A DNA stretch of 64,000 nt from Nanobdellota archaeon (GTDB lineage Archaea > Nanobdellota > Nanobdellia > Pacearchaeales > GW2011-AR1): assembly GCA_038045445.1 (NCBI GenBank), contig JBBSYC010000001.1, forward strand, positions 35,140 through 99,139, given 5' to 3'. The notes beneath the pieces are model-generated. The model saw only the letters and a program-made list of their open reading frames with translations. It was not told where the DNA came from and did no database searches. Of this stretch, positions 7,314-50,527 are shown in pieces (position 1 is the stretch's first letter; each line of letters begins with the position of its first letter). The position numbers and the translations under genes are program-made.

Positions 7314-7387
7314 AATTAGTAGCTTTGTCGAATATAAAAATTAAAAAAATATCGATAGGTTTTTAAGCTAAATTTCTAGCTATTTTT

Positions 7388-7793
7388 ATGAAGAAAGGAA
7401 GACTAGTTGCTCAAGAAGAGGGTATGGGATGCGGATTGGCTTGTGTAGCTTCTGAATTAGGGATAAGTTATCAGGATGCAAGACAATTATCTGGAAAACC
7501 TCAAAATTCTAGTGGGACAGGTTATTCTTGTAAATGTTTAGTTGAAGTTTTAAATCGCAAAGGAAGAAACTATGTTTTTAGAAAAGCTGAAGATAGAAGT
7601 GAAAGGGAACTTGAAAAAGTTGGAACAATATTTTGTTAGGGATGGAAAAGATGACTCATGGGGGCATTATCTACTAAGAACTTCAAAAGGTTGGATGAAT
7701 CCTTGGATAAATTGGCCTTCAATTAATCCTGCAAGAGCAGGTTATGAAAAAGAATTTATTGGTGAAATTGAATGGATTATTTATGAAAAATAA
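7388..7793 (+). pseudogene. papain-like (C39-like) cysteine peptidase, apparently split by a frameshift into ORFs 7388-7639 and 7572-7793
   Basis: N-terminal GCGLACVASELG (Cys motif) and downstream SWGHYLL (His motif) lie in different frames. The two frames could be joined at the T4 run near 7631-7634. Confidence 0.35.
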
Positions 7794-7798
7794 ATAAT

Positions 7799-10303: not shown

Positions 10304-10332
10304 TGTCTGTTATTGAAGACAAGATTTAATAA

Positions 10333-11772: not shown

Positions 11773-11808
11773 TGAGATTATAGTTATTATTAAATAGGCT
11801 TATTTTAT

Positions 11809-12411: not shown

Positions 12412-12447
12412 TGATAGTTTTTTATATCTTATTTTATCTAGATAAAT

Positions 12448-13719: not shown

Positions 13720-13780
13720 TTGTAACTATAGGATGGTTACAGATAGAAAGGTTTAAAAGGGTAGTTTATGCATTTTTATT

Positions 13781-14692: not shown

Positions 14693-14723
14693 TCTTTAAT
14701 AACACCTTTAATTTTCTTTAGAT

Positions 14724-16172: not shown

Positions 16173-16261
16173 GTTTAGGTATTGGAATAATATCCTCTTT
16201 AGGGATGCTTGATTAATTTATTATAGATTAATTTTTAAAGAGGGTTTTAGTTGGTTTTAAT

Positions 16262-17317: not shown

Positions 17318-17347
17318 GTCCATAATGCTTAAAAAAGGGGTTTCTTA

Positions 17348-18670
17348 ATGTTTGATATGGATTATTGGAAACTGCTTTCTGAAAGAAAGATGATTAATAC
17401 ACTAGAATCTAAAGAATCTAAGAATGTTGTTATTGCTGGATGGGTTTATGATCAGCGTGACTTGGGAAAGATTAGATTTCTTGTTTTGAGAGATTTTTCT
17501 GGAGAGATACAAGTAATTGCTCATAAAGATAAAGCTCCTAAGGAAGTTTTTGACTTAATGCAGAAAGCTTCTCGTGAAAGTGTGGTTCTTATTTCAGGGA
17601 AAATTCAAAAGAGTGAAAAAGCTTCTGGTGGAAGAGAGCTTGTTGCTGAACATTTTGAAATTCTTTCCGAGGCTGAACATCCCTTACCTATTGATGTATC
17701 TGACTTTTCAAAAACAGAATTGCCTAAGAGGCTTGATTATAGGTATGTTGATTTTCATAGAAGGAGAACACAAGCAATCTTCAAGATACAGAGCACCATT
17801 TCTACAGCATTCAAGGATTTTTTTGTTTCTAAGAGCTTTATCGAAATGCAACCTCCTTGTTTGATAGGTGTTGCTTCTGAAGGTGGAGCAGATGTTTTCA
17901 AAGTAAAATATTTTGAAAAGGAAGCTTGTCTTGCTCAAAGCCCCCAATTGTATAAGGAAATGGTTGCTTGTTCCATGGAAAAAACTTTTATGATTACACC
18001 TGTTTGGAGAGCTGAAAAACATAATACGGTCAGACATATAAATGAGATTCGCCAGATGGATATTGAATGTTCTTTCATGAGTCAGATGGATGTCATGAAG
18101 TTAGAAGAAGAATGTGTTAAGCATGTTGTTTCTGAAGTTATAAAGAAAAATAAAGCTGAAGTTGAACTTTTGGGTTTGAAATTAAAAGTGCCTACTGCTA
18201 AATATATTTCTTATGATGAAACTATTTCATTGTTAAAGAAGAATGGAATCAAAATTTCTATTGGAGATGATTTGAATCCTGAAGCTGAAAAGAAACTTGG
18301 GGAGTTATTTCCAGATACTTTGGTTTTTGTTCATTCGTGGCCTTCTTCGCTTAAACCATTTTATATTATGCCTAAAGGAGGGGATGCGAATTCTGATTAT
18401 TCGGAAGGTTTTGATTGTATATATAATGGTCTTGAGATAACATCTGGAGGGCAGAGAATTCATACGCCTGATTTGTTATTGAAAAGAATAAAACATAAAG
18501 GTATGAAAATAGATGGTTTAATGGATTACGTTAATTCCTTTAGATATGGTGCTGCTCCACACTCTGGATGGTCTATAGGTCTTGAAAGATTAACTATGCT
18601 TTTGTGTGAACTTGATAATGTCAGGGAAGCAACGATGTTCCCCAGAGATAGAGATAGACTTACGCCTTAA
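17348..18670 (+). CDS. aspS: aspartyl-tRNA synthetase (archaeal type, probably non-discriminating)
   Basis: OB-fold N-terminus, class II motifs (FRAE..HNTVRH, GGQRIH, GLERL). Confidence 0.9.
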   Translation: MFDMDYWKLLSERKMINTLESKESKNVVIAGWVYDQRDLGKIRFLVLRDFSGEIQVIAHKDKAPKEVFDLMQKASRESVVLISGKIQKSEKASGGRELVAEHFEILSEAEHPLPIDVSDFSKTELPKRLDYRYVDFHRRRTQAIFKIQSTISTAFKDFFVSKSFIEMQPPCLIGVASEGGADVFKVKYFEKEACLAQSPQLYKEMVACSMEKTFMITPVWRAEKHNTVRHINEIRQMDIECSFMSQMDVMKLEEECVKHVVSEVIKKNKAEVELLGLKLKVPTAKYISYDETISLLKKNGIKISIGDDLNPEAEKKLGELFPDTLVFVHSWPSSLKPFYIMPKGGDANSDYSEGFDCIYNGLEITSGGQRIHTPDLLLKRIKHKGMKIDGLMDYVNSFRYGAAPHSGWSIGLERLTMLLCELDNVREATMFPRDRDRLTP

Positions 18671-28155: not shown

Positions 28156-29463
28156 ATGGGTATTGTGGAAGATAAGGTGAAGGTTTACTTATCTAGGATA
28201 AAAGAATATAATAAATTGGTTAATGCTTTTATTGAATTGAGTAATGAAAATGAAATTCTTTCTGAAGCTAGAATGCTTGACTCTAAAACTAAGAAAGGAA
28301 GACTTTATGGTTATGTTATCGGAGTAAAGAGCAATATTTGCGTAAAGGGGTTACATGCTTCTTGCGCTTCTAAAACTCTTGAGGATTATAAAGCACCTTA
28401 TGATGCTACTGCAGTTAAAAGAATTAAAGAAGAGGATGGCCTCATTATAGGAATGCTTAATTGTGATGAATTTGCATGTGGTTGGACTGGAGAAACAAGC
28501 GCTTTTGGAAAATCTCATAACCCTGCGGTTCCAGACCATATATCAGGAGGGTCTTCTTCTGGTGCGGCGGTTGCTGTTGCTGCAGGTTTTTGTGATGTTG
28601 CTTTGGGAAGCGATACTGGGGGGAGCATAAGAGTTCCTTCTTCATTTTGCGGTGTTGTTGGTGTAAAGCCCAGCTATGGTTGCGTTTCCAGATATGGGTT
28701 GATTGATTTGTCAATGTCTCTTGATCAAATAGGACCTATTTCTAAGAATGTTTCTGATTCTGTTTTGTTGTTAGATGTAATAAAAGGTTTGGATGAAAGA
28801 GACACTACTACTTTTAATTCTAAACCTATTAAGATTGAGAAAATTAGCAAAATCAAATATGGAATTGTTAGAGTTTCAGAAGTTGATTCAAGAATATTAG
28901 ATTTGATTGACTCTTTTTTGGCAAAAATCTCAAGTAAATTAAAATGGTCTGAGAAAAAGGTTAATTTGAAATATATTAATTTTGGGATTCAGACTTATCA
29001 TCCTTTGGTATGGACAGAGTTCTTTTCTGCTACTCGCAGAATGGATGGAAGACGATTTGGTAAAAAAATAGAAGAATCCGCAGGTCCTGAAGTTTTAAGG
29101 AGAATTTTAGGGGGAAGCGAAATTTCAAGAGCGGAATTTAAGGGCCAATATTATCAGAAGGCACTTGCCGCCAAGGATTTAATCAAGAGAGAGTTTGATA
29201 ATGTCTTTAAGGAAGTTGATTGCTTAATAATGCCTACTGTTCCGATGTTGCCTTGGAAGTTTGGTACAGAGGTTTCTATGAACAAGTTATATGCTATAGA
29301 TGCTTTAACTATTCCCGGAAACCTTGCGGGTGTTTGTGCTATTTCTATCCCTATTGGAAAAATAGAGAGTAAACCTGTTGGATTGCAGGTTGTTTGTGCT
29401 AAAGGGGATGAGAGCAGGATGTTTAGTATTGCTAAGGAGATAGAAAACATTGTGAAAGAGTAA
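28156..29463 (+). CDS. gatA: aspartyl/glutamyl-tRNA amidotransferase subunit A (amidase)
   Basis: Amidase signature GGSSSGAAVAVAAGF...GSDTGGSIRVPS. Confidence 0.8.
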   Translation: MGIVEDKVKVYLSRIKEYNKLVNAFIELSNENEILSEARMLDSKTKKGRLYGYVIGVKSNICVKGLHASCASKTLEDYKAPYDATAVKRIKEEDGLIIGMLNCDEFACGWTGETSAFGKSHNPAVPDHISGGSSSGAAVAVAAGFCDVALGSDTGGSIRVPSSFCGVVGVKPSYGCVSRYGLIDLSMSLDQIGPISKNVSDSVLLLDVIKGLDERDTTTFNSKPIKIEKISKIKYGIVRVSEVDSRILDLIDSFLAKISSKLKWSEKKVNLKYINFGIQTYHPLVWTEFFSATRRMDGRRFGKKIEESAGPEVLRRILGGSEISRAEFKGQYYQKALAAKDLIKREFDNVFKEVDCLIMPTVPMLPWKFGTEVSMNKLYAIDALTIPGNLAGVCAISIPIGKIESKPVGLQVVCAKGDESRMFSIAKEIENIVKE

Positions 29464-31268: not shown

Positions 31269-31970
31269 ATGAAAAAAATAGAATTGTTAAGAGTACTTGA
31301 GAAATATCCATTGTTTACATTTAACGAGTTTGTTAAAATTACTGGAAAGAGCATTAAATATTCTAGGACTTACATATATAGATTAAAAAAAGATAAACTA
31401 ATATTTGAAATTGAGAAGGGTAAATATACTCTTAAAGATAACCCTCTGATATTTGCCTCTTTTATAACTGCTCCTTCTTATATTAGTTTTTGGACTGCTT
31501 TGAGATTTTATAATGTTACTGATCAGCTTCCAAATGAGATAATGGTAGCTTCTAAAAGATCTAAAAAAGAGATAACTTTTCTGAATGCTAAAATAAAATT
31601 CTATAAAGTGAAATATTTATGGGGATATCGAAAAATTAGATACAATAATTTTGATATATTCATTGCAGAATTAGAGAAGAGCATTATTGATTCTGTTGCA
31701 TCTGGTCTGGTTCCTTTGAGCGAGATTGTAGATGTATTGATAAATGAAGAGATTAATACTCTAAAACTTAAGGAATTTGCGATTAAAACTGGAAGTAAAT
31801 CATTAATAAAAAGAATTGGATTCTTACTGGATAAAATCAAAGTTGATGCTGATGAAATGCTTAAGTATATTGACTATAATTATATAATATTAGATATTAA
31901 TAATAAAAGTAAAGGTGATAAAAATAAAAAATGGAGGATAATTGATAATTTGAGCTATGATTTCACTTGA
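31269..31970 (+). CDS. AbiEi-like antitoxin/transcriptional regulator (type IV TA / abortive infection)
   Basis: N-terminal wHTH (LEKYPLFTFNEFVKITGKSIKYSRTYIYRLKKDKLIFEIEKGKYTL). Overlaps the downstream nucleotidyltransferase gene by 14 nt. Confidence 0.55.
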   Translation: MKKIELLRVLEKYPLFTFNEFVKITGKSIKYSRTYIYRLKKDKLIFEIEKGKYTLKDNPLIFASFITAPSYISFWTALRFYNVTDQLPNEIMVASKRSKKEITFLNAKIKFYKVKYLWGYRKIRYNNFDIFIAELEKSIIDSVASGLVPLSEIVDVLINEEINTLKLKEFAIKTGSKSLIKRIGFLLDKIKVDADEMLKYIDYNYIILDINNKSKGDKNKKWRIIDNLSYDFT

Positions 31971-32727
31971 AGATTTAAGGAATATTGCTAGAGTAAAAAG
32001 CATTAGTAATATTGGGTATGCTGAGAAGGATTATTTGCTTGATTTGATACTTTTTTCAATCTCTAAGAATACAAAAGATGAACTTGTTTTCAAAGGAGGT
32101 ACTTGTCTTTACAAAATTTATAAAATTAACCGGTTTAGCGAAGATATAGATTTTAGTGCTGTTAAAGAGATTGATTTTAGAAGTTTAATTAACAAGATAA
32201 TTATTGATTTGCGTTTGTTTGGTATTGAGGCAACTACTAAAGAGAAAAAAGAGAGATATAATACTACCCTAATAGCTTTGCATGCTAAAGGTCCGCTTTA
32301 TAATGGAAATTCAAATTCTTTGTGCAATATAAGAATAGATATAAACACTAAGTCGGAGGTTAATTTTAAACCTGTTTTGCATAGATATAACTCTTTATAT
32401 TCAGAAATCTCTGAATATTCTCTTCTTGTTATGTCTAAAGAGGAGATTTTAGCTGAAAAGATAAGAGCAATTATTAACAGAGATAAAGCAAGAGATGTTT
32501 ATGATTTATGGTTTTTACTTGAAAATGGAGTAAAGATTGATAAGTCTCTGATTGAAAAGAAACTGGAATATTATGAAAAGATGTTTGATTATAGTGAGTT
32601 TATAAAAAGAATTAAAGATAAGAAAAAATTGTGGGGTGTTGAGATTGGACGGTTGATAATGGGACAAGTTCCTGATTTTAAGGTTGTAGAAGAAACTATT
32701 ATTAAGAAGACTATGGGATTGAAGTAA
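31957..32727 (+). CDS. AbiEii/AbiGii-family nucleotidyltransferase toxin (DUF1814)
   Basis: VFKGGTCLYKIY...RFSEDIDFS motif characteristic of AbiEii nucleotidyltransferases. Confidence 0.65.
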   Translation: MISLEDLRNIARVKSISNIGYAEKDYLLDLILFSISKNTKDELVFKGGTCLYKIYKINRFSEDIDFSAVKEIDFRSLINKIIIDLRLFGIEATTKEKKERYNTTLIALHAKGPLYNGNSNSLCNIRIDINTKSEVNFKPVLHRYNSLYSEISEYSLLVMSKEEILAEKIRAIINRDKARDVYDLWFLLENGVKIDKSLIEKKLEYYEKMFDYSEFIKRIKDKKKLWGVEIGRLIMGQVPDFKVVEETIIKKTMGLK

Positions 32728-37878: not shown

Positions 37879-37930
37879 TAGACTATTTTAATGACAAACT
37901 TTATAAATAAATTGAGTATTAGGTATTGCT

Positions 37931-40105
37931 ATGAAAAGAGGATTTTTTTTAGTTGTATCTGTTGCTTTTGCTATTTTAGCTCTTTTTGTTTTATATCTTG
38001 ATGTTGCCAGAGATTGCGGTTCTCTTAGGTGTGTTGCGCGTTATGTTTCTACCGGAGAGAGTTTATCAGACTCTCAATTCCCTCCTAAAAAAATTCAGTT
38101 TTTTGACTCCAGTTCAGATTCTAATATTCTTAGTTTTGCTTTGAAGAAGACTATTTCTAAGATTATTTATCCTTTTGTGGAACATGAAGAGGTTTTGCTT
38201 CAGGCAGGTCTTGAGCCACCGGTTATAACTGGAATAGCTCCTCCTTCCTTTTCTAGTTCTTCCGATACAGATGTTTCAGTAATAGGACAGAATTTTGACC
38301 TTGATGCTTTGCTTTTAATCGGAGGAGATGTTATTGAGAGCTCTAGGCTGACTATAACCCCAACAGAAATATTATTTAGTTATATTGCCAATGAACTTCC
38401 TGCAGGAACTCATCAGGTCTCTGTTACAAACCCTTCTTCAGGACTTGTTTCGAATTCCTTTGGATTAACATTGACTACTAGCCCAGTTATAACTTCTCTA
38501 AGTCCACAAACTATAGTAAATAATGATAGTTATATTGTAAATATAAATGGAAACGACTTTAATCCTTTTGCAGTAGTTTTTGAAGGAATTATATTAGATA
38601 GTTCTTCTGGATTGTGGCAATATGTAAGCCCTAATTTGATTAGACTAAATATTCCTTCCGGTTTATCTGCGGGAGATTTTGATATTCAGATATATAATTT
38701 GGATGGTGCTCTGTCTAATATTATGGTTCTTAGGTCCAATTATCCATTTGTTTATTTCTTGAGTTCTTCTCCTTCTCCTGGAGATGTTTTGCCAGGTAGC
38801 TCTTTTGTTTTGGATGTTTCAATAAATAGTGTTGTTTTCACAGAACATGAAGAAGTTGTTTTAAGTTTGCAGACTCCTTTAGGAATTACTTCTAGTTTTG
38901 TTGGTTCAGACAGGTGTATTCCTAATATTCCTTCTACTGTCGTTCAAGGTATTGCTTATTGTAACCTTGCTGTTAATTTTGATGTTGGTTCTATTCCAAG
39001 TGGAAACTATAATCTCTCTATTAATTCGGTTTCTGCTTTGAATTCCGTGAAGGGTCAGATTAACTTTTCTTTGAATGTTATTCCTTTAGGTCAACCTGAT
39101 GGGGATTTGGATGAAGTCCCAGATTCTATTGATTTGTGTCCTAACACTCCTGCAAATGTAAAGACGACTTACGGAATTAATGTATTCAATGGATGTCCTA
39201 TTCCTAATATTTATCCAATGACTGCTTCGCTCACAACTGACTTCTCAAATGTTCCTAATCTATTTGCTGTCGAGAATTTGAGAATGGGCATTGCTGGAAA
39301 CTCTAGCGTTACTTTTAGGGCTCCCATTAGCATGTTATGGGTGAATACTACTGCAGTTCCTTCTCATCATTTGCCTATAGGTCTTGGAGAATGGGCAATT
39401 AACTTATCAGAGAATTATGTTTTCATTAATTCTACAAAGAGACCTATCTTTAATGTTTCTGCTGAAGTAACTTTCTTTGATACTGGACTTACTAATCCTG
39501 TTTTGTATAGAGATGGAGTTATTTGTGATTCAAGTAAATGTCATATTCTTTCTTTCGATACAATATCTGGAGATGTTGTAGCAAATGTTTCTGGGTTCTC
39601 TAGCTACTCTGTCTCTCAAGGTTCTTGTGGAGACTCTATGTGTTCTATTGCAGAGACTTGCTCTAGCTGTTCTGCTGATTGTGGTTCATGTCTAAATAAC
39701 GGTCCCCCTCCTAGTGGTTCTTCTGGTGGCGGTGGAGGCGGTGGGGGATCTAAGGGTAGTAAGGGTTCTTCTTCGATAGTTTATCGTGCAACTCCTCAGT
39801 GTAGCGATGGAGTGGATAATGATTTAGACTCTTTAGTTGACTATCCTAACGATTTAGGTTGTCTTAATACTAGTGATGATACTGAAGTGGATTCTAGTCC
39901 TCTTGTTGGAGATTCAGAGGGACAAGGAGAATCTTTAGATTCGTCTTCTTCTATAAAAGACAAAGATTATAGTATGGGGGTTGTATTTTGGATAGTCCTT
40001 GTTGTGCTTCTAGGAGGCATAACTCTTGTAATAGTAAGGATATTAAAGTATTCTCGTAATCGCAAAAAGTTTTCAGATCTTGCCGAGATGACTTCTAAAT
40101 CATAA
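37931..40105 (+). CDS. giant surface protein 1 (724 aa)
   Basis: N-terminal TM/signal, IPT/TIG-like domains, the shared cassette, then the C-terminal module described in the summary. Tail KYSRNRKK. Many N-x-S/T sequons. Confidence 0.7.
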   Translation: MKRGFFLVVSVAFAILALFVLYLDVARDCGSLRCVARYVSTGESLSDSQFPPKKIQFFDSSSDSNILSFALKKTISKIIYPFVEHEEVLLQAGLEPPVITGIAPPSFSSSSDTDVSVIGQNFDLDALLLIGGDVIESSRLTITPTEILFSYIANELPAGTHQVSVTNPSSGLVSNSFGLTLTTSPVITSLSPQTIVNNDSYIVNINGNDFNPFAVVFEGIILDSSSGLWQYVSPNLIRLNIPSGLSAGDFDIQIYNLDGALSNIMVLRSNYPFVYFLSSSPSPGDVLPGSSFVLDVSINSVVFTEHEEVVLSLQTPLGITSSFVGSDRCIPNIPSTVVQGIAYCNLAVNFDVGSIPSGNYNLSINSVSALNSVKGQINFSLNVIPLGQPDGDLDEVPDSIDLCPNTPANVKTTYGINVFNGCPIPNIYPMTASLTTDFSNVPNLFAVENLRMGIAGNSSVTFRAPISMLWVNTTAVPSHHLPIGLGEWAINLSENYVFINSTKRPIFNVSAEVTFFDTGLTNPVLYRDGVICDSSKCHILSFDTISGDVVANVSGFSSYSVSQGSCGDSMCSIAETCSSCSADCGSCLNNGPPPSGSSGGGGGGGGSKGSKGSSSIVYRATPQCSDGVDNDLDSLVDYPNDLGCLNTSDDTEVDSSPLVGDSEGQGESLDSSSSIKDKDYSMGVVFWIVLVVLLGGITLVIVRILKYSRNRKKFSDLAEMTSKS
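39121..39681 (+). repeat. copy A of a 561-bp near-identical cassette shared by giant genes 1 and 2
   Basis: Read directly; about 3 mismatches over 561 bp against 46345-46905. Encodes DSIDLCPNTPANV...SADCGSC. Confidence 0.85.
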
Positions 40106-40123
40106 ATCTTTATAAAGTCCTCT

Positions 40124-43100
40124 TTGCATTTTAGGACGATGAAAAGAGGTTTTTCTATTTTTGTTTTATTTGTTTCTCTCATTCTAATTCTTTCATTTTA
40201 TTTTGGAAATTTTTATGATTCTAATGAGACTATTAGCTCTGATTATTCTTGGCCTGCTTCAGTTTATCTGTTTCATGATTTAAATTTATTAAAATCTCCT
40301 AATATGGAGACTTTTTCTGGTTCCTCTTGCACCATTCTAGGTCTTTCTTGGGATAGGCAGAAGGCTAGGGCAGGAGATGATGTTAAATTACTTGTAAATA
40401 GCAAAGGTTGTGATGAGGGAACACATGTTCTTCTAACAATATCTGATTCTGATTTATTATCTGATGACACTCTTTCGTCTTATCGTTTACCTTTAGTTTA
40501 TGATGTTACTTCTGCAATATGGACAGTTCCTTCTTTTCCAGATGCATTTTCTGAATTTATGGAAGGAAAAGACATTGAGTTATATATTTCTGCAACTTTG
40601 GATACAGAGGATGTTTTTTCTACACTTGTTTATTCTCCTTCTAATTCATTAGATGTTAATGACCTTAATTTAGAAGATTATTCAATTCCTCTTCTTATTC
40701 CTCTTCAGGAATCTGATGGTATAGGAGATCCTATAACTGGAGATTTGTTGTCTCCAATTCTTTCTGTATCTGCTTCTGATTTAGAGGAAGACCCTCAAGT
40801 TCAATTGTCTGCAGTTTCTCTTGGGGAAAATCAAGTTTTCATAAAAAATGAAAATGTTTTTGCTGTGACTAATCATTTAGCTAGTGTTCCTATTTCTTTT
40901 CAACCTTGTGAATATTTTGATGGAGATAATAACATAAGGCTTAGAGATACTACGACCAATAATATTCTTACTACTCAAATTCAGTCTACGGGATATCATC
41001 AGAAAGATAGTGCCTCATGCACTAAAGGTTCTGTGATGTTTGCAGTTGCACATGTTAAAGTTAGTCTTGCTCCAGGAGAGGAAAGAATTTATGATATTAT
41101 TGAGTCTACTCAAGCAAACTCTCCGTTTGTTTATGCTCCAGAAGTTGATGATTTTGTTATAAGAGGAGCCATTCGGTCTGTTTCAACAGATATTTATGGA
41201 AGAGATTACGTTGCAGATATACCCTTTGCTGGTTTAGAGTGGGTCGTTAATGGAGATGTTGTTCGTATAGGAAAGTACACAAAAATGCATAGAATTGCGA
41301 ACCCTTCTTCATGCAACACTAATCAGCCTTGTTTGAGCTATTTGTTCTCTGTTGTTACTTATTTGACTTTTGTTAGCAATGAACCCATTGTTAGAACACA
41401 GGTTCTTGTTGTAAATGCGATGAACTTTGATGAACTTCAAACTCCGGACTGCTCTCAAACTCCTTGCGTTTATAGAAGGCTTGATAACAATCAACCTGAA
41501 TGGCAGAATGGAAATTTGAAGTATGGTTCTCTGCGATTTAATATAGATGGTTTTGCTAATCCGTTTTCATTTTATTTTCCAGATATGGATATAAGACAAC
41601 CTACTACAATATCCCAAGTAGATAATACTCATGCTACTGTTTGGACAATGCCTTCTGATGGGCAGTATACTTTAGGATGTATCTTAGGAAATACTGGAGG
41701 TTATTGTCCTCCAGAATTTGATAGAGAGAATAAGAATTATCTTGGAGAGGGTCAGAGTTTGCTTGTGGATGGAATTGTTAAGTTTGGGAGTTATAATACC
41801 CCTACATATACGACGCATAATTATTTTGCAGAGAATAAAATAGGTTCTGGACAATCACTTAAAAGATGGACTAAAGTAGACAGATTATTTGAATCTATGA
41901 TTCCAGATACTTCTAAATTAGGTGATTTGAGTAGATGGATATCTCCTGCAGATGCACAGAGCGAGTATGATTCTATTAGACCTTCTGCTTCAAATCAGAG
42001 GACTCATTTTGGGAATGCTCCTATTTATCAAACTAGGCTTACTGAAGCGAGCGAGAGTTTTCCGAGAGACTTTAGAGTGGATATGTATAGTAACCTTTGG
42101 GTAAAATATTTACTATCTTGTGCGGATAGATGTAATCCCAAATATCTTTATGCTCTTAGTTTTAAAAATAAACAGAGCACAATGTTTGTTGGACATCTTG
42201 TAGGTTATGAGCCTTGGGAACATCCCCTTGCTAACCCTTTAATTGATGATGGTACTGGGGGGATACCATTTAGTAGTTCTGCTGGTGCTGAAAGACTTTG
42301 TTATTCACAAAACCCATTTAGAACGACTTACAGAGATACTCTTGGTTTTTGTAATGTTCAGACTCCAAATGCTCACTTATATGATTATGGTGATTTGGGA
42401 ATTGGAGAGGGAAGAGCCCCCCATCATGAATGGAGTGCTTATGGAAGAACTCATTGGGGAACTAGCGAAGCAGAATATGTTTATGCTTCAGGAGACTTGA
42501 TGTTAAGAGATGTTTTCATGAGCACTGCAAAACTTCATGCTAATGTAATTCATCACTCTCCTGACTTGACTCTTACGAAACCAGCAAGTGGTCCTGCAAG
42601 GGGTATTGGGAGAGTTGCTGTCGGCGTTGAAAAAGCTGCGTTCATGACTAATCCATTGATTCAAAGTTATTATTCAGATTCTCTCAAGAGATGGCTTTCG
42701 AGAATTGATGAGAGATTAAATAAGCAGAATCCTGGAGATAGAGGATATAATCCTGTGACTGGAGATCCTTATGCGGTGGGACATTTGGGAATTGATGCTT
42801 GTAATGATGTCGTTTTCGGAAATGGAGAGCTTTGCGGAGAGCAGGTTTGGATGGAGGCTCTTGCTGCTCAAGGTTTAATGGAGATAAGACAGAATATTCT
42901 TGAAACAGGGACACAATATATTCAACTTATGGATACTATACTCTTTCATTTATCAAGATATCTTTTTGATTTCGGATATAAAGATCCTTCACAAGTCAAA
43001 AATAATTTTGTTATTTCCCATCCTATTACCGGACAGTCAATAACTGTTAATGAGGGTCTTGGATATCTGGCTTATTGGACTGCTCATGGGCCATCTCCAG

Positions 43101-46100
43101 GAGTGTCCGTTGTTACAACATATCCTCGATATAATTATGGCCCTGAAACTACAGACCATTGGCACATACCTAATGCTCTTTGTTTGCTTGCCAAGTTCTA
43201 TTCTCCAGATACTACGCGCCAGAACATAGCATTGAAATCTTTTGAGGCTTCATTTGGGTATAGAGGTTATACTTTGAAAGCTGAAAGCGGATCTCATAGG
43301 CTTAAGGATATTTTGCCTCCATCTCTTTCAGTAATCTCTGCGGACTTTTTATGCTCTTTGACACAGTTAAAAAATATTCCGACACCTAATGTAGTTAATC
43401 CTCCTGCGTGTCCTGACGCTGATGCTGACGGATATTCTACTTGTTTAGGAGATTGCAATGATGCAAATCCAAATATTCATCCTAATGTTCTTGAGAGTAG
43501 TGGTCTTTGCAGTGATTCAGTGGATAATAATTGCAATGGTCTACGAGATTGTGAGGATACGGGATGTTTTCTTTGTGGAGATAATACTGCTTGTTATTCT
43601 TCTCTTTATTGTAACTCTAATTCTATAGCTTATTGTGGAAATCTTGTAGTTAATAATCCAAATGCTGTTGGTCTTCAGGAAACTTGCGATGTCAATCCTG
43701 CTCCGCCTCAACTTATCTCTGTAAGAGGTAGTGGACAGAATTCTCTTGGTGACGGAAGATGTATCCCTCCAGGAACTTTACCTGCGCATGGACAAGCTTG
43801 TACTTATGCAATTGCGGCTACATGCGGAGATAATATGGTAAATCGACAATCAGAAGAATGTGATGGAACAGCTGTTGGGATATGCGGGCCTGCAACGTCA
43901 TGTTCTGCATCTTGTTTATGTAATGGTCCTGTATTGAATAGTATTTCTCCGAATAGTATAACTAACCCTACTCAAAATGTAGTTGTTACTGCTAGCGGAA
44001 GAGGTTTTGTTGCTACTCCCACTGTAAAGATTAATAATATTCCCCAGAGCAGTGTTCCTGTTTCTTTTGTTAATCAAAATTCTATTTCCTTGACTTTTAC
44101 GCCCGATTTTTTACAGATTCTTGGTTCTGGAACTCATCAATTAAGTCTTGTAAATCCAAATACTCAAGAGACAAGGAGTCTTTCTTTGACTACTACTATG
44201 AGCGGAGGATTATGTACTAACGCTTTGATGGTTGGTTCAGGAAAACCTTATGCTAAGCCAAGTGATGCTTTGGCAGTTGCTCAAGATGGAGATACAATAC
44301 TTATATTCCCTGGAACTTATCTTGATTATGCAACAATTACTCAAGATAATTTAATTATTAGAGGAGTAAGAGATGCCTCTGGAAACAGACCTAAAATTAC
44401 ATGGAATGGAAATGTGCCTAATGGAAAGGCTCTTTTTGTTTTAAGATCTCCACACATAGTTATAGATAATTTAGAGATGTATGGCGCCGAATCTTCAAGT
44501 GCTAACGGTGCTGCTTTGCGTGTTGAAAGTCCTGTTACTCAATTAACTGTAAGAAATAGTTATTTCCATGATAGTCAGATGCAAATTCTCCAAGATGAAG
44601 GAAACTTAGCATTTACGGCGCTTTTAGAGTATAATGAGTTCGATCATCAAGGAAGTTGTACTAATAATGATTTGAATCTTTGTTCACATTTGGTTTATAT
44701 TAATGGAGGAGCATCCGTGACTGTTCAGAATAATTATTTCCATCATGCGCGGAGAATGCATCATTTTAAGAGCAGAGCTGCACAAAACTTTGTTTTGTAT
44801 AATAGATTTACAGATGAAGAGACGGGACAATCTAATTACCATATAGACTTTCCACAAGGGGGAGATAATTATGTAATTGGAAACTTATTTCATCAAAACA
44901 TAAACACGAGAAATTCTAATATAATTGTAGTTAATACAGAGATTAATGATCCTTTGAAACCAGCACATACACTTCAGAACTTATATGTTGTCGCAAATAC
45001 TTTTGTAGATGATTTTGCAGGAGTTATGGTTTCTTCAGATTATAATACAAACATACGCACTCTAAATAACTTCGTTATAAGAAATAATATATTTATTACT
45101 TCTGCTTTGCAACAAAATGCTTTTGGAGGAAATCCTACTTTCGATTCAAACCTTTTGAGTACCATTGGTTCATTTACGTGGTTTAGAAATGTTTTAGGTT
45201 ATGATTATTCTCTTACAGGGGGTTTGTTAAACACCGGTTCTCCTTATGGTTCTAGTGTTACTGGTTATTCTTTGACTCCTTCTTATCAATATGTTCATAA
45301 TGCCAAACGTGAGACAAGGTCTGCTTCTGGGGCTCCAGATGTTGGAGCTTATGAGTTTTCAGGGGGAGGAGGAAATACTTGCTTCTCTTCTACTGAATTA
45401 TGCGACGGAATAGATAATAATTGTAATAGTCAGATTGATGAAGGAATAGTATGTACTTCTTGCAGTGGCGGACCTTCTGGACCAAGTATTGTTTCAGTTC
45501 AGCCTTATAACTTTTCTATAGCAAACAATACCTTAGTTGTAGTTACGGGGCAAAACTTTGCAAGTAACTCTGATATAAGAATAAATGGTCTTCCAGTTAG
45601 CACTATTAGAACATCTCTGACAGAATTACGTTGGAATTACATTGCTAATTCTTTGTTGGCTGGATTGAATACTTTAACAGTTTATAATCCTCCTACTGGT
45701 TTATCTTCAGGACCATTTTATCTGAATCTCACTTCTCCTCCTAATGCTCCTTCTAACTTTGTTGCAATTCCTCAGTCTTCTACAGTTATTTTGTTAACAT
45801 GGATAGATAATGCAAACAATGAAGATTATTTTGAAATGGAAAGAAGACCTCTTCCTTCAGGTACTTTTGCTATAATGCCTGGAGCTAGTCGTTTGAATCC
45901 AAATAGCAGAACTTATAACAACACTGGCCTTTCCGTTGGAGCAAGTTATGAATATCATGTTCGTGCAGTTAACTCTGCAGGAACTTCGGCTTGGTCTAAT
46001 TTGGCAAATGCGACAACTGCATCTAATCTTGTCCTTACTTCGTTGAATCCCAACTCAACAGTTAATGGTGCCTCTACAAATGTTCAGATGATAGGGACTG

Positions 46101-47356
46101 GATTCTCGACTATTAATTGTGGTATAGAGATTAACAGAATTCTTGCTAATTCTTCTCTTTATGGAATTAATTGTGTAAGTTCTACCAGAACGGACTTTGT
46201 TGTTCCCCCTGGATTATCTTTAGGGAATTATAGCTTGGTTGAAGTTACCTTGAATAATCTCGGAGGAGTTATTGCACGAAGCAATTCTTTAAACCTTACA
46301 GTAGTTAGTGGAAATGTTCCTGATGGAGATGGAGATGGAGTTCCAGATTCTATTGATTTGTGTCCTAATACTCCTGCAAATGTAAGGACGACTTATGGAA
46401 TTAATGTATTCAATGGATGTCCTATTCCTAATATTTATCCAATGACTGCTTCGCTCACAACTGACTTCTCAAATGTTCCTAATCTATTTGCTGTCGAGAA
46501 TTTGAGAATGGGCATTGCTGGAAACTCTAGCGTTACTTTTAGGGCTCCCATTAGCATGTTATGGGTGAATACTACTGCAGTTCCTTCTCATCATTTGCCT
46601 ATAGGTCTTGGAGAATGGGCAATTAACTTATCAGAGAATTATGTTTTCATTAATTCTACAAAGAGACCTATCTTTAATGTTTCTGCTGAAGTAACTTTCT
46701 TTGATACTGGACTTACTAATCCTGTTTTGTATAGAGATGGAGTTATTTGTGATTCAAGTAAATGTCATATTCTTTCTTTCGATACAATATCTGGAGATGT
46801 TGTAGCAAATGTTTCTGGGTTCTCTAGCTACTCTGTCTCTCAAGGTTCTTGTGGAGACTCTATGTGTTCTATTGCAGAGACTTGCTCTAGCTGTTCTGCT
46901 GATTGCGGCTCTTGTGGAGGAAGTAGTGGGGGTGGTTCTTCTGGAGGAGGTTCCGGTGGAGGTGGAGGAGGCGGAGGTTCTAGTGGTGGAGGTGGAAGAA
47001 CAAGTTCTGGACCAGTTATTAATCGTGTTGTTACTCAATGTAGTGATGGTCTTGACAATGATGGAGATGAATTAATAGATTATCCTAGAGATAGAGGGTG
47101 TTTGAATAACGAAGATGATGTTGAACTTGACTCAAGCAATCTTGTTACCGACTCTGAAGATAAAGAAAGGTTAGGAAATTCCGAAGAGAGTTTGGATAAA
47201 AATATAAGATTGGTGTTTTGGATTGTTCTTGCTACTCTTTTGATTGGAATCTCTATTGTTTTGATATTGATATTAAAATATTCGAGAAATCATAAAAGGA
47301 TTAATGCTCTTGCAAAAATGGTGTCTGCTAATGCTTTTGATTTAAAACATAGTTGA
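40124..47356 (+). CDS. giant surface protein 2 (2410 aa)
   Basis: N-terminal TM/signal. Cys-rich MopE/TSP3-like CxDxDxDG motifs (CPDADADGYSTCLGDCNDANP..., CDGIDNNCNSQIDEG). IPT domains. Right-handed beta-helix repeats (NSYFHDS..., VQNNYFHH...). An FN3-like domain. The shared cassette. Gly linker, QCSDGLDNDGDELIDYPRDRGC, TM, KYSRNHKR. Confidence 0.7.
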   Translation: MHFRTMKRGFSIFVLFVSLILILSFYFGNFYDSNETISSDYSWPASVYLFHDLNLLKSPNMETFSGSSCTILGLSWDRQKARAGDDVKLLVNSKGCDEGTHVLLTISDSDLLSDDTLSSYRLPLVYDVTSAIWTVPSFPDAFSEFMEGKDIELYISATLDTEDVFSTLVYSPSNSLDVNDLNLEDYSIPLLIPLQESDGIGDPITGDLLSPILSVSASDLEEDPQVQLSAVSLGENQVFIKNENVFAVTNHLASVPISFQPCEYFDGDNNIRLRDTTTNNILTTQIQSTGYHQKDSASCTKGSVMFAVAHVKVSLAPGEERIYDIIESTQANSPFVYAPEVDDFVIRGAIRSVSTDIYGRDYVADIPFAGLEWVVNGDVVRIGKYTKMHRIANPSSCNTNQPCLSYLFSVVTYLTFVSNEPIVRTQVLVVNAMNFDELQTPDCSQTPCVYRRLDNNQPEWQNGNLKYGSLRFNIDGFANPFSFYFPDMDIRQPTTISQVDNTHATVWTMPSDGQYTLGCILGNTGGYCPPEFDRENKNYLGEGQSLLVDGIVKFGSYNTPTYTTHNYFAENKIGSGQSLKRWTKVDRLFESMIPDTSKLGDLSRWISPADAQSEYDSIRPSASNQRTHFGNAPIYQTRLTEASESFPRDFRVDMYSNLWVKYLLSCADRCNPKYLYALSFKNKQSTMFVGHLVGYEPWEHPLANPLIDDGTGGIPFSSSAGAERLCYSQNPFRTTYRDTLGFCNVQTPNAHLYDYGDLGIGEGRAPHHEWSAYGRTHWGTSEAEYVYASGDLMLRDVFMSTAKLHANVIHHSPDLTLTKPASGPARGIGRVAVGVEKAAFMTNPLIQSYYSDSLKRWLSRIDERLNKQNPGDRGYNPVTGDPYAVGHLGIDACNDVVFGNGELCGEQVWMEALAAQGLMEIRQNILETGTQYIQLMDTILFHLSRYLFDFGYKDPSQVKNNFVISHPITGQSITVNEGLGYLAYWTAHGPSPGVSVVTTYPRYNYGPETTDHWHIPNALCLLAKFYSPDTTRQNIALKSFEASFGYRGYTLKAESGSHRLKDILPPSLSVISADFLCSLTQLKNIPTPNVVNPPACPDADADGYSTCLGDCNDANPNIHPNVLESSGLCSDSVDNNCNGLRDCEDTGCFLCGDNTACYSSLYCNSNSIAYCGNLVVNNPNAVGLQETCDVNPAPPQLISVRGSGQNSLGDGRCIPPGTLPAHGQACTYAIAATCGDNMVNRQSEECDGTAVGICGPATSCSASCLCNGPVLNSISPNSITNPTQNVVVTASGRGFVATPTVKINNIPQSSVPVSFVNQNSISLTFTPDFLQILGSGTHQLSLVNPNTQETRSLSLTTTMSGGLCTNALMVGSGKPYAKPSDALAVAQDGDTILIFPGTYLDYATITQDNLIIRGVRDASGNRPKITWNGNVPNGKALFVLRSPHIVIDNLEMYGAESSSANGAALRVESPVTQLTVRNSYFHDSQMQILQDEGNLAFTALLEYNEFDHQGSCTNNDLNLCSHLVYINGGASVTVQNNYFHHARRMHHFKSRAAQNFVLYNRFTDEETGQSNYHIDFPQGGDNYVIGNLFHQNINTRNSNIIVVNTEINDPLKPAHTLQNLYVVANTFVDDFAGVMVSSDYNTNIRTLNNFVIRNNIFITSALQQNAFGGNPTFDSNLLSTIGSFTWFRNVLGYDYSLTGGLLNTGSPYGSSVTGYSLTPSYQYVHNAKRETRSASGAPDVGAYEFSGGGGNTCFSSTELCDGIDNNCNSQIDEGIVCTSCSGGPSGPSIVSVQPYNFSIANNTLVVVTGQNFASNSDIRINGLPVSTIRTSLTELRWNYIANSLLAGLNTLTVYNPPTGLSSGPFYLNLTSPPNAPSNFVAIPQSSTVILLTWIDNANNEDYFEMERRPLPSGTFAIMPGASRLNPNSRTYNNTGLSVGASYEYHVRAVNSAGTSAWSNLANATTASNLVLTSLNPNSTVNGASTNVQMIGTGFSTINCGIEINRILANSSLYGINCVSSTRTDFVVPPGLSLGNYSLVEVTLNNLGGVIARSNSLNLTVVSGNVPDGDGDGVPDSIDLCPNTPANVRTTYGINVFNGCPIPNIYPMTASLTTDFSNVPNLFAVENLRMGIAGNSSVTFRAPISMLWVNTTAVPSHHLPIGLGEWAINLSENYVFINSTKRPIFNVSAEVTFFDTGLTNPVLYRDGVICDSSKCHILSFDTISGDVVANVSGFSSYSVSQGSCGDSMCSIAETCSSCSADCGSCGGSSGGGSSGGGSGGGGGGGGSSGGGGRTSSGPVINRVVTQCSDGLDNDGDELIDYPRDRGCLNNEDDVELDSSNLVTDSEDKERLGNSEESLDKNIRLVFWIVLATLLIGISIVLILILKYSRNHKRINALAKMVSANAFDLKHS
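46345..46905 (+). repeat. copy B of the 561-bp cassette (direct repeat, offset 7224 bp)
   Basis: Read directly; see copy A. Confidence 0.85.
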
Positions 47357-47380
47357 GGGATAATTTATATATCTTAAAGC

Positions 47381-50300
47381 TTGTTTTTGTTTATGAGAGT
47401 TAATTATTTTTGGTATTTGTTTTTTGTTTTAATTTTATCAATTATATTAATTACTTATTTTGTTAAGGTTAATAATCTTGAAGGCTCTTTTTCTACTCCT
47501 AGAGACGACGGAATCCTTGGATCTCTTGAAGATTCTGAAGGTCAGCTTTCTCCTCTTGGAGGTGATGAATCCTTTATAATCGAGAATACCTTAGCTCCTG
47601 CAGGTGCTTCTTTAGAGGGGACTAATGCTGTGGGTTTTGATTCTTCTAAAGGAGTTTACTATTTTGAATTTAGGGATTTTAATGATATTCTTTTAGATAG
47701 ATATGAAATAAATATTAGTAACTCCGAAGTTCAAAAAGGGATTTTAAAAATTAGGGAATCTCGAAGAAATTTCTTTCCAGTGGTTGATGGGGGGACTCTT
47801 TATAGGACCCCTTCAGGACAAATACTTCAACCAATTGATCTCGCATTAAAATCCCAGATTAACTCTTTTAATCATCAACAGACTTCTTTAAATAGTGTTC
47901 AATTTCAATATGATGAAACTGTTAGTTCTGAGACCGAAACCGTTTTACTTACAAAGCAGTATACGTTTTCCATTAAAGGGGGAACACTCATTATAGAGGT
48001 TAAACAAATTGATTCTCCTCTTACTCCTACATCGAATTATGCAGGATTTACTTTTGGTCAGGCGAATAATGTTGAGAATCCTCGAAATATATCAATACCT
48101 TATATGGAAATAGCACCCATAACTGTTGTAAATAACAGCTTCTTTTCTTCAACATATATTGATTGGTCTTTAAGCAATTCAAATTATTATCCTCAATTAG
48201 TTTGGTCTAATTCTAATTCTCCTGGAAATTTTAAAAATTCTTACTCTTCAAAATATGTTGCTCGTCAAAGTAATACATACAATAATATTGAAGAAACGGG
48301 ATATGTTTCAGTTAGTAATAATGTTGAGGATCTTATGATGGTTCCTCACAGACAGCCATCCCCTTATCGCAATCAATTGGACTCGAGACCAGTAATTTCT
48401 GTTTGGAATCTTTGGGGAAATTTTCAAACTTCGGAAGGAGTTCTTTCCTATTTTCATGATTCTCTAGGTATTGATAATCTGACTGTGATTTACAATAGAT
48501 GGAGTCAGAATTTCTGTGCTCCTCCCCATGATCTTCCTGCAGCAATGAATCTCGGCGGAAATGAGGCACTACTTAGGTTAGTAAATAAAGCTAAATCTTA
48601 TGGTTATTTATTTGCACTTTATGAAGTTTATTCAGATTTAAATCCTAGTAGTCCATTTTGGGAAAAAAATCAAGATAAAATCTCGCTTAATTCAAGTGGT
48701 GCGAGGCGTTTAGGGTGGTTTGCAGAAAGTTGCCCTTTTCCCCAAAACTATGATCTTTCGAGTGATAAGAGTTTGTTCTTTGCTCAAAATATTTCTCCTC
48801 AAATTAAAGAAACTTTTAATCCTAATGCGGTTTATACAGATGTAATTCCAAAACAATATATGACTAATGGTGGAATAGATTATTCTGCAACTAATTTAAA
48901 TTCTAGTTCTATTGGTGCTACTATGCAAAATGCTATGCATTTGTTTGATTTTCTTCATTCTAATTATAACTCTCCTCTTTTTGGAGAGGGTGGTCAAGTT
49001 CCAATTTCTCCAAGAGTAATGTATGGAGGTTTGGTTGATTCAATTGGAGGTGAAATTGTTGGTAGGGAATTTGCCCCCATATTACCAGATTATGAACTTA
49101 AAATTATAAAACCTTTAATGGCAAATCAGGGAATGGGTATGCCTCAAAGATGGGTTGGAGATGGGACAATACACCATGTCGGAGATTTGGACATAGCTAA
49201 TTTAGATTTGGATAAGTATAATTCAATGGCTATCTCTTATGGTCATACTGGGTATATAGACGAATTGTTGAGTCAAACAAATCCCCTTTATTATCTGTCC
49301 AAATATTATGTAACTGAATATTATTTATTTAGGGAAATTCAAGAGAGATATCTTTCTTCTCCAGTAATATCAGTTTTATATGAAAATTCTTCTGGAAATA
49401 TGATTGATCTTAATGAAGCTTTGCGCCAGAATCTAGATTTTAGTAAGACTAAATTAAGAACTTCTTATTCTAATGGTCTCGTGGTATATGTTAATCACGG
49501 TTCTTCTATTTGGGTAGTTACCCAAAGTGGGAAAACTTATTATCTACCATTAAATGGTTGGTTGGCTATTGCCCCAGATTTTATAGAGTATTCTGCTTTA
49601 GTAGACCAAAATGGTAATCCTTCGATTAGTGGACATAGGGCAGATTATATTTATTCCCCCAATTATCTTTTCGTGAATGGCCGCGGAGTTGAAACCTCGT
49701 TTGGAAATGATTATTTCAATAATCCTATAATTGCAACTAATATTTTAGTAATTAAACCTACTGGTTGGATAGTTCTTGAAACTTTAGACCCTAATATAGG
49801 GGGACAATTTGTTCCTTCGGTTTTTCATTTAGTTCCATCAATAAATAGGATAAATCCAGATAATGTTATTAATAATAAGGATAATTTAATTAGAGTTCAA
49901 GGACTTAATTTTACGTTTACTAATTTTTTAATGCTTAATGATATTCTCTTAGATGATAGCATTTATCAAGTTAATATTGTTAATTCTACAGATATAACTT
50001 TTGTTCTTCCATCTGGATTTTCGACCGGAGATTATAATTTAACTGTTATTCATCCAATTGGTCAAACTGGTAGTCTGACTAGTAATTCCTTAATTTTAAG
50101 GGTTGAATCTCCAAGTGGTACTGGCGGAAGCTCATCCGGTGGTGGTTCTTCCGGTGGTGGAGGCGGAGGAGGCTCTGGAGGTCCTGCAGTCGGAGGAGGT
50201 TTAATAACTCAATGTAACGATGGAGTCGATAACGACGGAGATTTGTTAATAGATTATCCAAATGATTTGGGGTGCAGTAGTTCTAATGACAATAGTGAAA

Positions 50301-50527
50301 TTGATTCTGAATTGATAATAGGATCTACTTCTGGTTCAAATTATACCTCTGGCAACTCAGGGGCTGTCGGAGGAAGGGATTCTGGAGAGAATATGAGCTT
50401 AATCTTTTGGGTTCTTCTTGTATCTCTTTCAATTGCTATAATTATTGTATTTGTTTTAATTATAAGACATTATAGGGCGCGTAAAAGAATAGATTCACTA
50501 ACAAGATTTTCTAATTACTCTAAGTAA
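47381..50527 (+). CDS. giant surface protein 3 (1048 aa)
   Basis: N-terminal TM, large uncharacterised ectodomain, IPT-like domain, the same C-terminal module. Tail RHYRARKR. Confidence 0.65.
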   Translation: MFLFMRVNYFWYLFFVLILSIILITYFVKVNNLEGSFSTPRDDGILGSLEDSEGQLSPLGGDESFIIENTLAPAGASLEGTNAVGFDSSKGVYYFEFRDFNDILLDRYEINISNSEVQKGILKIRESRRNFFPVVDGGTLYRTPSGQILQPIDLALKSQINSFNHQQTSLNSVQFQYDETVSSETETVLLTKQYTFSIKGGTLIIEVKQIDSPLTPTSNYAGFTFGQANNVENPRNISIPYMEIAPITVVNNSFFSSTYIDWSLSNSNYYPQLVWSNSNSPGNFKNSYSSKYVARQSNTYNNIEETGYVSVSNNVEDLMMVPHRQPSPYRNQLDSRPVISVWNLWGNFQTSEGVLSYFHDSLGIDNLTVIYNRWSQNFCAPPHDLPAAMNLGGNEALLRLVNKAKSYGYLFALYEVYSDLNPSSPFWEKNQDKISLNSSGARRLGWFAESCPFPQNYDLSSDKSLFFAQNISPQIKETFNPNAVYTDVIPKQYMTNGGIDYSATNLNSSSIGATMQNAMHLFDFLHSNYNSPLFGEGGQVPISPRVMYGGLVDSIGGEIVGREFAPILPDYELKIIKPLMANQGMGMPQRWVGDGTIHHVGDLDIANLDLDKYNSMAISYGHTGYIDELLSQTNPLYYLSKYYVTEYYLFREIQERYLSSPVISVLYENSSGNMIDLNEALRQNLDFSKTKLRTSYSNGLVVYVNHGSSIWVVTQSGKTYYLPLNGWLAIAPDFIEYSALVDQNGNPSISGHRADYIYSPNYLFVNGRGVETSFGNDYFNNPIIATNILVIKPTGWIVLETLDPNIGGQFVPSVFHLVPSINRINPDNVINNKDNLIRVQGLNFTFTNFLMLNDILLDDSIYQVNIVNSTDITFVLPSGFSTGDYNLTVIHPIGQTGSLTSNSLILRVESPSGTGGSSSGGGSSGGGGGGGSGGPAVGGGLITQCNDGVDNDGDLLIDYPNDLGCSSSNDNSEIDSELIIGSTSGSNYTSGNSGAVGGRDSGENMSLIFWVLLVSLSIAIIIVFVLIIRHYRARKRIDSLTRFSNYSK

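Follow-up and report, generated by a model that had tools for sequence, protein, structure and literature searches.

DPANN archaea live in attachment to other cells and probably make this contact through their surface proteins. To our knowledge, almost nothing is known about how these proteins are held on the cell, and we know of no archaeosortase in Nanoarchaeota. Two kinds of described system are relevant here. In the known tripartite sorting signals, a short signature motif lies directly before a hydrophobic helix, few basic residues follow it, and the signal is discarded (PMC6098224); archaeosortases have been described for a subset of Euryarchaeota only. C-terminally transmembrane (TM)-anchored, SlaB-like surface proteins with N-terminal leaders have been described in a cultured nanoarchaeon (bioRxiv 10.1101/2023.10.27.564410). 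The present analysis concerns the C-terminal tails of three surface proteins, P1, P2 and P3, encoded on a 64-kb stretch of contig JBBSYC010000001.1 from a Nanobdellota archaeon, referred to below as the window. Each tail is a cassette composed of a Gly/Ser tether, a small Cys- and Asp-rich knob, an acidic stalk, a TM helix and a basic tail. This tail is a conserved, recurrent, lineage-restricted anchoring module that is absent from Pfam and NCBIfam. With moderate confidence, its sequence features are read here as those of a permanent type-I membrane-anchoring and spacing cassette of a narrow clade of groundwater Nanoarchaeota, by which large, fast-evolving, modular surface proteins would be displayed.

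P1, P2 and P3 are three head-to-tail genes on the + strand, as are all of the features located below. P1 (37931..40105) is a surface protein of 724 amino acids (aa) that combines a hydrophobic leader at the N-terminus with IPT/TIG domains and, at the C-terminus, the cassette. The cassette of P1 opens with the Gly/Ser tether SGSSGGGGGGGGSKGSKGSSS (39713..39775), inside which a weak period-9 DNA repeat is found at 39724-39744. The knob that follows, CSDGVDNDLDSLVDYPNDLGC (39800..39862), is a single acidic, disulfide-bracketed repeat of the NF033662 type, modelled by AlphaFold2 (AF2) at a predicted local distance difference test (pLDDT) score of 90-95. The stalk (39863..39979) is 39 aa long, rich in Ser, Asp and Glu, of net charge -8 and predicted to be disordered; its first part contains the DD.E that trails the knob (39863-39889). 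The TM helix VVFWIVLVVLLGGITLVIV (39980..40036) starts with VVFWIVL and is followed by the predicted cytoplasmic basic tail RILKYSRNRKKFSDLAEMTSKS (40037..40102), beginning RILKYSRNRKKF.

The same cassette closes P2 (40139..47356), a protein of 2405 aa with a MopE-type motif and fn3 and TIG domains. Here the tether (46916..47011), the knob CSDGLDNDGDELIDYPRDRGC (47039..47101), an acidic stalk of 36 aa (47102..47209), the TM helix LVFWIVLATLLIGISIVLILIL (47210..47275) and the basic, predicted cytoplasmic tail KYSRNHKRINALAKMVSANAFDLKHS (47276..47353) follow one another as in P1. The body of P3 (47393..50527; 1044 aa) is unrelated to P1 and P2, and a weak, sub-threshold match to the TIG-like repeat model NF058597 (17.2 bits against a cut-off of 30 bits) was found just before its tether (50114..50182). 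The tether leads into the knob CNDGVDNDGDLLIDYPNDLGC (50213..50275), an acidic stalk of 41 aa rich in Ser, Gly and Asn (50276..50398), the TM helix LIFWVLLVSLSIAIIIVFVLII (50399..50464) and the basic, predicted cytoplasmic tail RHYRARKRIDSLTRFSNYSK (50465..50524).

Comparison of the translations and of the coordinates of the parts shows that the order and spacing of the elements are identical in the three proteins. Each tail starts with a Gly/Ser run of 21-32 residues and a further 8-10 residues ending in an invariant Gln. The motif C[SN]DG[VL]DND.D.L[VI]DYP.D.GC then follows, succeeded by ..[DN][DN].E.D, an acidic, Ser-, Asp-, Glu- and Asn-rich stalk of 36-41 residues, a helix that opens with [VL][VI]FW, and a basic tail of 20-26 residues. 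An earlier note on this DNA, made from the sequence alone, had aligned the three C-termini in this order, and the translations confirm it; its estimate of 40-60 residues for the acidic segment was too long, and the position that it gave for the module, 39690-40105, covers the P1 copy and leaves those of P2 and P3 outside. A search of all six frames of the window for the knob pattern found it at three places only, the tails of P1-P3. Apart from the N-terminal leader, exactly one hydrophobic segment is present in each protein, near the C-terminus. The net charge is -5 to -8 in the stalk and +4 to +6 over the first 12 residues of the tail, a positive-inside pattern. A leader, a single C-terminal TM helix and positive-inside charge are the features of type-I, C-terminally TM-anchored (SlaB-like) proteins, and P1-P3 have all of them.

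To compare the anchors without the contribution of the knob, the stalk, TM helix and tail alone were aligned pairwise with phmmer, with E-values scaled to a database of 1.84e9 sequences. The P1/P2 pair gave E=2e-12, and the P1/P3 and P2/P3 pairs gave approximately 1e-4 to 2e-3, a likeness far beyond chance. P1 and P2 also share a 597-bp homogenised ectodomain segment, located at 39095..39691 in P1 and 46319..46915 in P2, with 98% nucleotide identity. This tract contains a TSP3-like DGD.D.VPDSIDLCPNTP motif, a beta-sandwich and CGDSMCSIAETCSSCSADCGSC. The identity breaks off where the run coding for Gly and Ser begins, at its first base, and no blastn match extends beyond that point. Protein identity to the P1 tail is 53% for P2 and 38% for P3. 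Since the homogenised tract stops at the Gly/Ser run and the tails are only this similar, the tails are older and diverged, and their likeness does not come from recent duplication; the end of the tract also marks the Gly/Ser run as the boundary of the cassette. The tract itself has the appearance of a recent gene conversion or domain duplication, bounded by the low-complexity run.

Further carriers were sought with an anchor-only profile (A2), built from the stalk, TM helix and tail without the Cys/Asp motif and run exhaustively against 1.84e9 representative proteins. At E<=1e-3, 29 matches were obtained: the three query proteins, three repetitive sequences and approximately 23 genuine proteins. 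The repetitive sequences (P0025, P0028 and P0044), which matched in several stretches, were discarded as low-complexity or eukaryote-like repeats. In every genuine match, a single stretch spans almost the full length of the profile and lies at the very C-terminal end of the protein (91-2601 aa in all). The query contained no knob, yet a complete Gly/Ser run and knob were found upstream of the anchor in 18 of these proteins, and two fragments begin within the knob. The exceptions are P0042, without a knob, and P0047, without the first Cys of the knob. P0042 retains the Gly/Ser run, stalk, FW-type helix and tail, and both proteins are potentially useful natural controls for knob function. The recovery of these proteins with a hidden Markov model (HMM), as the earlier note had suggested trying, makes the tail a recurrent module, and a scan of metagenomes added 12 further cassette open reading frames (ORFs) in nine loci. 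The outcome depended on the search: word-indexed searches with the whole module or with a 22-sequence alignment returned almost only short multi-repeat bacterial fragments, defining the repeat well and the anchor poorly, and a word-indexed search with the anchor alone gave no match, so that the exhaustive HMM search was needed.

In the 22-sequence alignment, 16 positions are invariant (Q, C, D, D, N, D, D, D, D, G, C, D, E, W, I and I). Besides the Gln, both Cys and the Asp and Asn residues in ligand positions of the knob, they include the Asp and Glu that trail it and, in the helix, the Trp of FW and two Ile. Across the family, the stalk has a median length of 39 aa (mostly 33-49) and a net charge of -2 to -10. 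The tail has a median length of 22 aa (11-40) and a net charge of +2 to +8 within the first 12 residues, and it shows the recurring pattern R..R.[KR]KF..LA. When AF2 was run on the family alignment, the knob was modelled at pLDDT 90-95 and the stalk below 50, with one continuous helix from the start of the TM segment, at pLDDT of about 97, to the end of the tail.

The leader at the other end of these proteins is also conserved. The N-terminus of P1 (37931-38080) follows the pattern MKR.GF..V.AFAI.S.FV.Y.D...CGS..CV..Y.STGE, which is common to the distant cassette proteins P0032, P0035, P0045 and P0048 and is conserved well past the level of a generic signal peptide. In many other cassette members, [IS]TG is found a few residues past the hydrophobic region. 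Besides the cassette, the leader may be a second conserved element for targeting or processing.

The knob could be assigned to a known repeat family. The sole NCBIfam model touching the tails of P1-P3 is NF033662, the 'acidic double-disulfide repeat' (acid_disulf_rpt), and the knobs of these proteins and of all 21 aligned family members align to positions 3-28 of its 32 positions. Each knob is matched in a single stretch of 17-27 bits, with E-values of 4e-3 to 3e-6 in P1-P3. The whole-protein scores of P1-P3 are 16.8-26.8 bits, from one copy each, below the curated cut-off of 41 bits. As controls, proteins with 2-22 copies of the unit C.DG.DNDGDG.ID[YF]P.DPGC...D..E score 44-350 bits against the same model, indicating that the knob is one copy of this curated repeat. 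The knob has exactly two Cys, against the two disulfides (four Cys) implied by the name of the model. Literature searches for 'acidic double-disulfide' and 'PACE-CTERM' gave no match.

The distribution of the repeat was examined in one genome per GTDB species. The NF033662 unit was found in candidate phyla radiation (CPR) bacteria (Falkow-, Jorgensen-, Peri-, Peregrini- and Saccharibacteria, and others) and in DPANN archaea, as well as in Myxococcota, Solirubrobacterales (Actinobacteria), Gammaproteobacteria and Methanosarcinales, at any position in an ORF and in 1-22 copies per ORF. It also precedes other anchors. In a myxococcal protein (L034), MYXO-CTERM lies behind the last repeat (30.8 bits, cut-off 20), and in a protein of Solirubrobacterales (L003) the repeat is followed by an LPLTG anchor of the LPXTG type (15.5 bits, cut-off 15.9). 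In these two proteins and in two more from Myxococcota (L008 and L066), the spacer between the last repeat and the MYXO-CTERM or LPXTG-type anchor is rich in Gly, Asp and Ala. An architecture of last acidic repeat, spacer and C-terminal anchor thus recurs across phyla. Because the repeat occurs anywhere, in many copies and before other anchors, the Cys/Asp motif is not itself a sorting element; the Cys-bracketed Asp motif that the earlier note took for part of a new signal is one copy of a widespread, curated repeat.

The ligand pattern of the knob resembles that of a known calcium site. The top sequence match of the P2 knob in the PDB is the C-rich domain of teneurin-4 (7plp_A; E=0.12, not significant alone), with the alignment CSDGLDNDGDELID / CGDSKDNDGDGLVD. 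The invariant knob residues at C+2, +5, +6, +7, +9 and +13 fall on teneurin D840, D843, N844, D845, D847 and D851, which coordinate Ca2+ in a thrombospondin-T3-like manner (PMC9058538), and the bracketing Cys pair corresponds to C838-C857. The resemblance to thrombospondin type-3 repeats that had been suggested for this motif is consistent with this match and with the coincidence of the ligand positions (PMC9058538). We infer that the Asp and Asn residues of the knob form a Ca2+ site of the thrombospondin-T3/teneurin type. The knob has two Cys, where the teneurin C-rich domain has six Cys in three disulfides. A synthetic consensus peptide was used only to display the teneurin sequence and is not evidence. 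The core vDNDGDGliDYPa, a DxDxDG-type loop, also aligns to the loop VDADGDGTIDFPE of calmodulin, with E-values that are marginal (0.04-1); these matches were taken as likeness of the loop motif only and not as homology. The helix-loop-helix of an EF-hand is not seen in the AF2 model of the knob, in which the only helix is one 3-residue turn.

Other candidate identities were also rejected. PF11617 (Cu-binding_MopE), the second resemblance suggested for the motif, does not match the three tails even at E<=10 and matches P2 elsewhere only. Pfam matches on the tails (SCIMP, TMEM156, LapA and others) are all far under their cut-offs and were treated as noise. P2 contains internal Cys-rich acidic motifs, ACPDADADGYSTCLGDCND..., CSDSVDNNCNGLRDCEDTGC and CDGIDNNCNSQIDEG, at approximately aa 1100-1145 and 1735-1755, which are related to the knob and of a different type; only the first is recognised, as PF11617 (aa 1106-1135). 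Similar C.DGLDNDCDG motifs occur inside other members of the cassette family.

All named cassette members come from metagenome-assembled genomes (MAGs) of Nanoarchaeota or Candidatus Pacearchaeota. Among the 79 knob-carrying loci of the GTDB scan, this anchor is present in one, from a Hainich Nanoarchaeota MAG (L009), and the other DPANN proteins among these loci have unrelated C-terminal helices. At least three carriers are present per genome, with unrelated ectodomains, and the cassette is preceded by at least two upstream contexts, either a beta-sandwich with CGDS.C...E.C..C..DCG.C or a TIG-type domain directly. Adjacent tandem pairs of cassette genes, resembling the triple array of the window, occur in four other loci (L083, L086, L090 and L098); the pair in L083 lies at 2540-9952 and 9968-14530. 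In a related Hainich genome (L081), the syntenic slot (10001-14068) holds one cassette gene of 1355 aa, against three at 37931-50527 of the window, and is followed by genes for aRF1, valyl-tRNA synthetase, HhH-GPD, HAD and ParA proteins. The housekeeping flanks of the two loci are mostly 80-90% identical (58% for the HAD hydrolase), whereas for the surface protein identity to P1 falls to 30-39%, indicating that the locus evolves fast.

Several observations weigh against a permanent anchor. The succession of repeat, spacer and hydrophobic and basic segments is where other phyla put true sorting signals, and by analogy the nanoarchaeal tail could be processed too. The R-x-[VI]-F-W with which the TM helix begins could serve for recognition, and the presence of several carriers in one genome, unrelated in their ectodomains, is what is classically seen with sortase-type substrates. 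The likeness of the knob to teneurin, moreover, is not statistically significant alone (E=0.12). It is conceivable, though in our judgement unlikely, that the FW helix and basic tail are a C-terminal sorting signal of a new class, cleaved by a candidate nanoarchaeal enzyme so that the protein is moved to a lipid or surface-layer component. The enzyme would be functionally like an archaeosortase, rhombosortase or myxosortase. The C-terminal hydrophobic helix followed by a basic cluster, the conserved start of the helix and the restriction to a narrow clade would all suit such a signal, as would the NF033662 repeat and spacer that precede MYXO-CTERM and LPXTG, which are true signals, in Myxococcota and Actinobacteria. 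Existing CTERM models do not account for the tail: no CTERM sorting model was matched at E<=10 by the three tails or by 21 family members, with MYXO-CTERM and LPXTG detected elsewhere by the same tool as controls. The tail therefore lies outside the defined CTERM families of NCBIfam and Pfam, as had been proposed. However, no PGF, PEF, PEP, VPXXXP or LPXTG-like motif is found next to the helix, in agreement with the earlier note as far as PGF, PEF and VPXXXP are concerned. The residues before the helix vary (MG, IR, MS and others), and only the R-x-[VI]-F-W is semi-conserved. The C-terminus also carries more than a short basic cluster, with a tail of 11-40 aa (median 22) and a conserved KKF..LA; this long, partly conserved tail suggests retention, unlike the sorting signals that are removed (PMC6098224). 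The earlier note had suggested looking for a co-occurring archaeosortase or rhomboid; no archaeosortase, exosortase, rhomboid or other multi-pass enzyme was found in the window, in 8.7 kb of additional contig or in the flanks of approximately 12 related loci (L081, L083 and L086-L098), and archaeosortases are confined in the literature to part of the Euryarchaeota. Multi-TM neighbours considered as partner enzymes were an ICMT/PEMT-like protein (L081), DUF2157 and DUF2238 proteins (L083) and a 5-TM ORF of 180 aa (L092/L096); these are not common to the loci and were rejected. Of the proposal that the module is a new sorting or anchoring signal, the anchoring part is well supported, whereas nothing indicates processing and a sorting signal stays speculation.

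A related possibility, considered rather unlikely, is that the FW helix and tail act together with the fixed-length stalk as the recognition element of a new sorting and attachment system of Nanoarchaeota, in which ectodomains would be cleaved and given covalently to a lipid or the surface layer. That such a system would be the DPANN counterpart of PGF-CTERM/ArtA or MYXO-CTERM/myxosortase is likewise rather improbable. The function could instead reside in the membrane-proximal knob, as a Ca2+-dependent, dockerin- or EF-hand-like docking site for a surface-layer subunit or host-contact protein, with a generic TM helix. Conservation within the cassette is highest in the knob residues, the core DNDGDGxIDYP matches calmodulin EF-hand loops, two multi-repeat relatives have precomputed Dockerin_1 (PF00404) matches, and the near-constant stalk length is what would be expected for a knob at a fixed height over the membrane. 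This is nevertheless judged distinctly unlikely. Even with the knob left out, conservation of the stalk, TM helix and tail is significant, so that the helix is more than a generic one, and P0042 retains the anchor without a knob; a gene for a cohesin-like partner was not identified, and the AF2 model contains no helix-loop-helix. It is very improbable that the tail has no special function and is common only to recent tandem paralogues kept alike by duplication and gene conversion. The genes are indeed tandem, P1 and P2 do share the 597-bp tract at 98% identity, and the cassette is approximately 33-45% identical between genomes, a level that the ectodomains beside it equal or exceed. The conversion, however, ends short of the cassette, the tails are old, with 38-53% identity within the window, and the 16 positions, the stalk length and the charge pattern are invariant in approximately 35 proteins from many assemblies with different ectodomains.

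With the tail taken as a permanent anchoring and spacing cassette, the following mechanism may be proposed. The basic and hydrophobic N-terminal leader, present in all full-length members, would drive Sec export. The single C-terminal helix would then stop transfer and leave the Lys/Arg-rich tail in the cytoplasm, a topology predicted from the charge pattern. Outside the membrane, the disordered, strongly acidic stalk of approximately 39 residues would carry one small disulfide-closed loop, and the Gly/Ser tether, of 15-35 residues, would join this rigid knob flexibly to whichever ectodomain is attached. The cassette appears to behave as a module, to judge from at least two unrelated kinds of preceding domain, the tandem arrays and the P1/P2 conversion tract that ends at the Gly/Ser run; the low-complexity run coding for Gly and Ser may serve as a recombination boundary. 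For the FW...L..GI face of the helix and the R..R.[KR]KF..LA tail, contact with a shared partner in the membrane or cytoplasm, or between the two, is probable.

The setting of the locus is that of a groundwater nanoarchaeon. The window has a G+C content of 33% and encodes aRF1, GatD/GatE and an archaeal-type prolyl-tRNA synthetase, and the exact P1 protein is present on the ENA contig Hain_H52_01um_R2_21 (145.8 kb; 0.1-um filtrate, Hainich groundwater well H52). TATA-box-like elements TTTATAAAT, TTTATAAA and ATTTATATA are found at 37900-37908, 40109-40116 and 47363-47371, approximately 22-31 nucleotides 5' of the ATG of P1, P2 and P3, respectively. Their presence before each ATG suggests that every gene has its own archaeal promoter, with a very short leader or none. 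A beta-propeller (PF09826) protein of 776 aa, encoded at 907-3237, has an N-terminal hydrophobic leader and neither a C-terminal helix nor the cassette, indicating that the cassette is not used by all exported proteins of the organism. At 5545-18670 and 28156-29463, genes for a GatB-like protein, GatD, GatE, a GatA-type amidase and prolyl-tRNA synthetase are found, together with a class II aminoacyl-tRNA synthetase of the D/K/N type at 17348-18670; this region thus groups components of both tRNA-dependent transamidation routes. Toxin-antitoxin-like pairs surround the locus (window 31269-32727; L085 9564-11119), namely AbiEii with an upstream gene of 233 aa, HicA/HicB and DUF4258/DUF2283, and PIN/MazE pairs lie within the syntenic region of L081.

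These results are of interest for research on DPANN cell surfaces and on protein-sorting signals. The cassette HMM provides a sequence handle for listing the displayed surface proteins of one groundwater nanoarchaeal clade, and the cassette gives a defined module boundary for studying ectodomain swapping in rapidly evolving tandem loci. It is also a testable candidate for a Ca2+-stabilised membrane-proximal stalk or, less likely, for a new sorting signal. Since the extracellular part of proteins from several phyla often closes with NF033662, ahead of a lineage-specific anchor, the knob can be annotated as a repeat and not as a new signal.

Compared with the known systems, PF11617 Cu-binding_MopE is, like the knob, a short Cys/Asp-rich motif of surface proteins, but its Cys spacing differs. 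The tripartite signals (PGF-CTERM/archaeosortase A, PEF-CTERM, PEP-CTERM/exosortase, MYXO-CTERM, LPXTG/sortase and GlyGly-CTERM/rhombosortase) share with the cassette the C-terminal helix and basic residues, several carriers per genome and lineage restriction; the cassette differs from them in having no signature motif adjacent to the helix, no CTERM model match and a longer, partly conserved tail. The SlaB proteins of Sulfolobales and the MJ1_0299/0309/0707-type proteins of Nanobdella aerobiophila are alike in the N-terminal leader, the large Ig/TIG-rich ectodomain and the single C-terminal TM segment as permanent anchor. They have not been reported with a Gly/Ser tether, Ca2+-type knob, FW helix and KKF..LA tail, and they are likened to P1-P3 by architecture, not by sequence homology. 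The knob unit matches the NF033662 repeat model in every window protein and aligned member; the cassette is set apart by its single, always membrane-proximal copy, its only two Cys and the invariant Gln before the first of them, and the model does not cover the stalk, TM helix or tail. Already known, then, are the knob repeat, which is curated, and the general kind of anchor. What is new is the fixed combination of tether, single knob, fixed-length acidic stalk, FW helix and KKF..LA tail, apparently shuffled among surface proteins.

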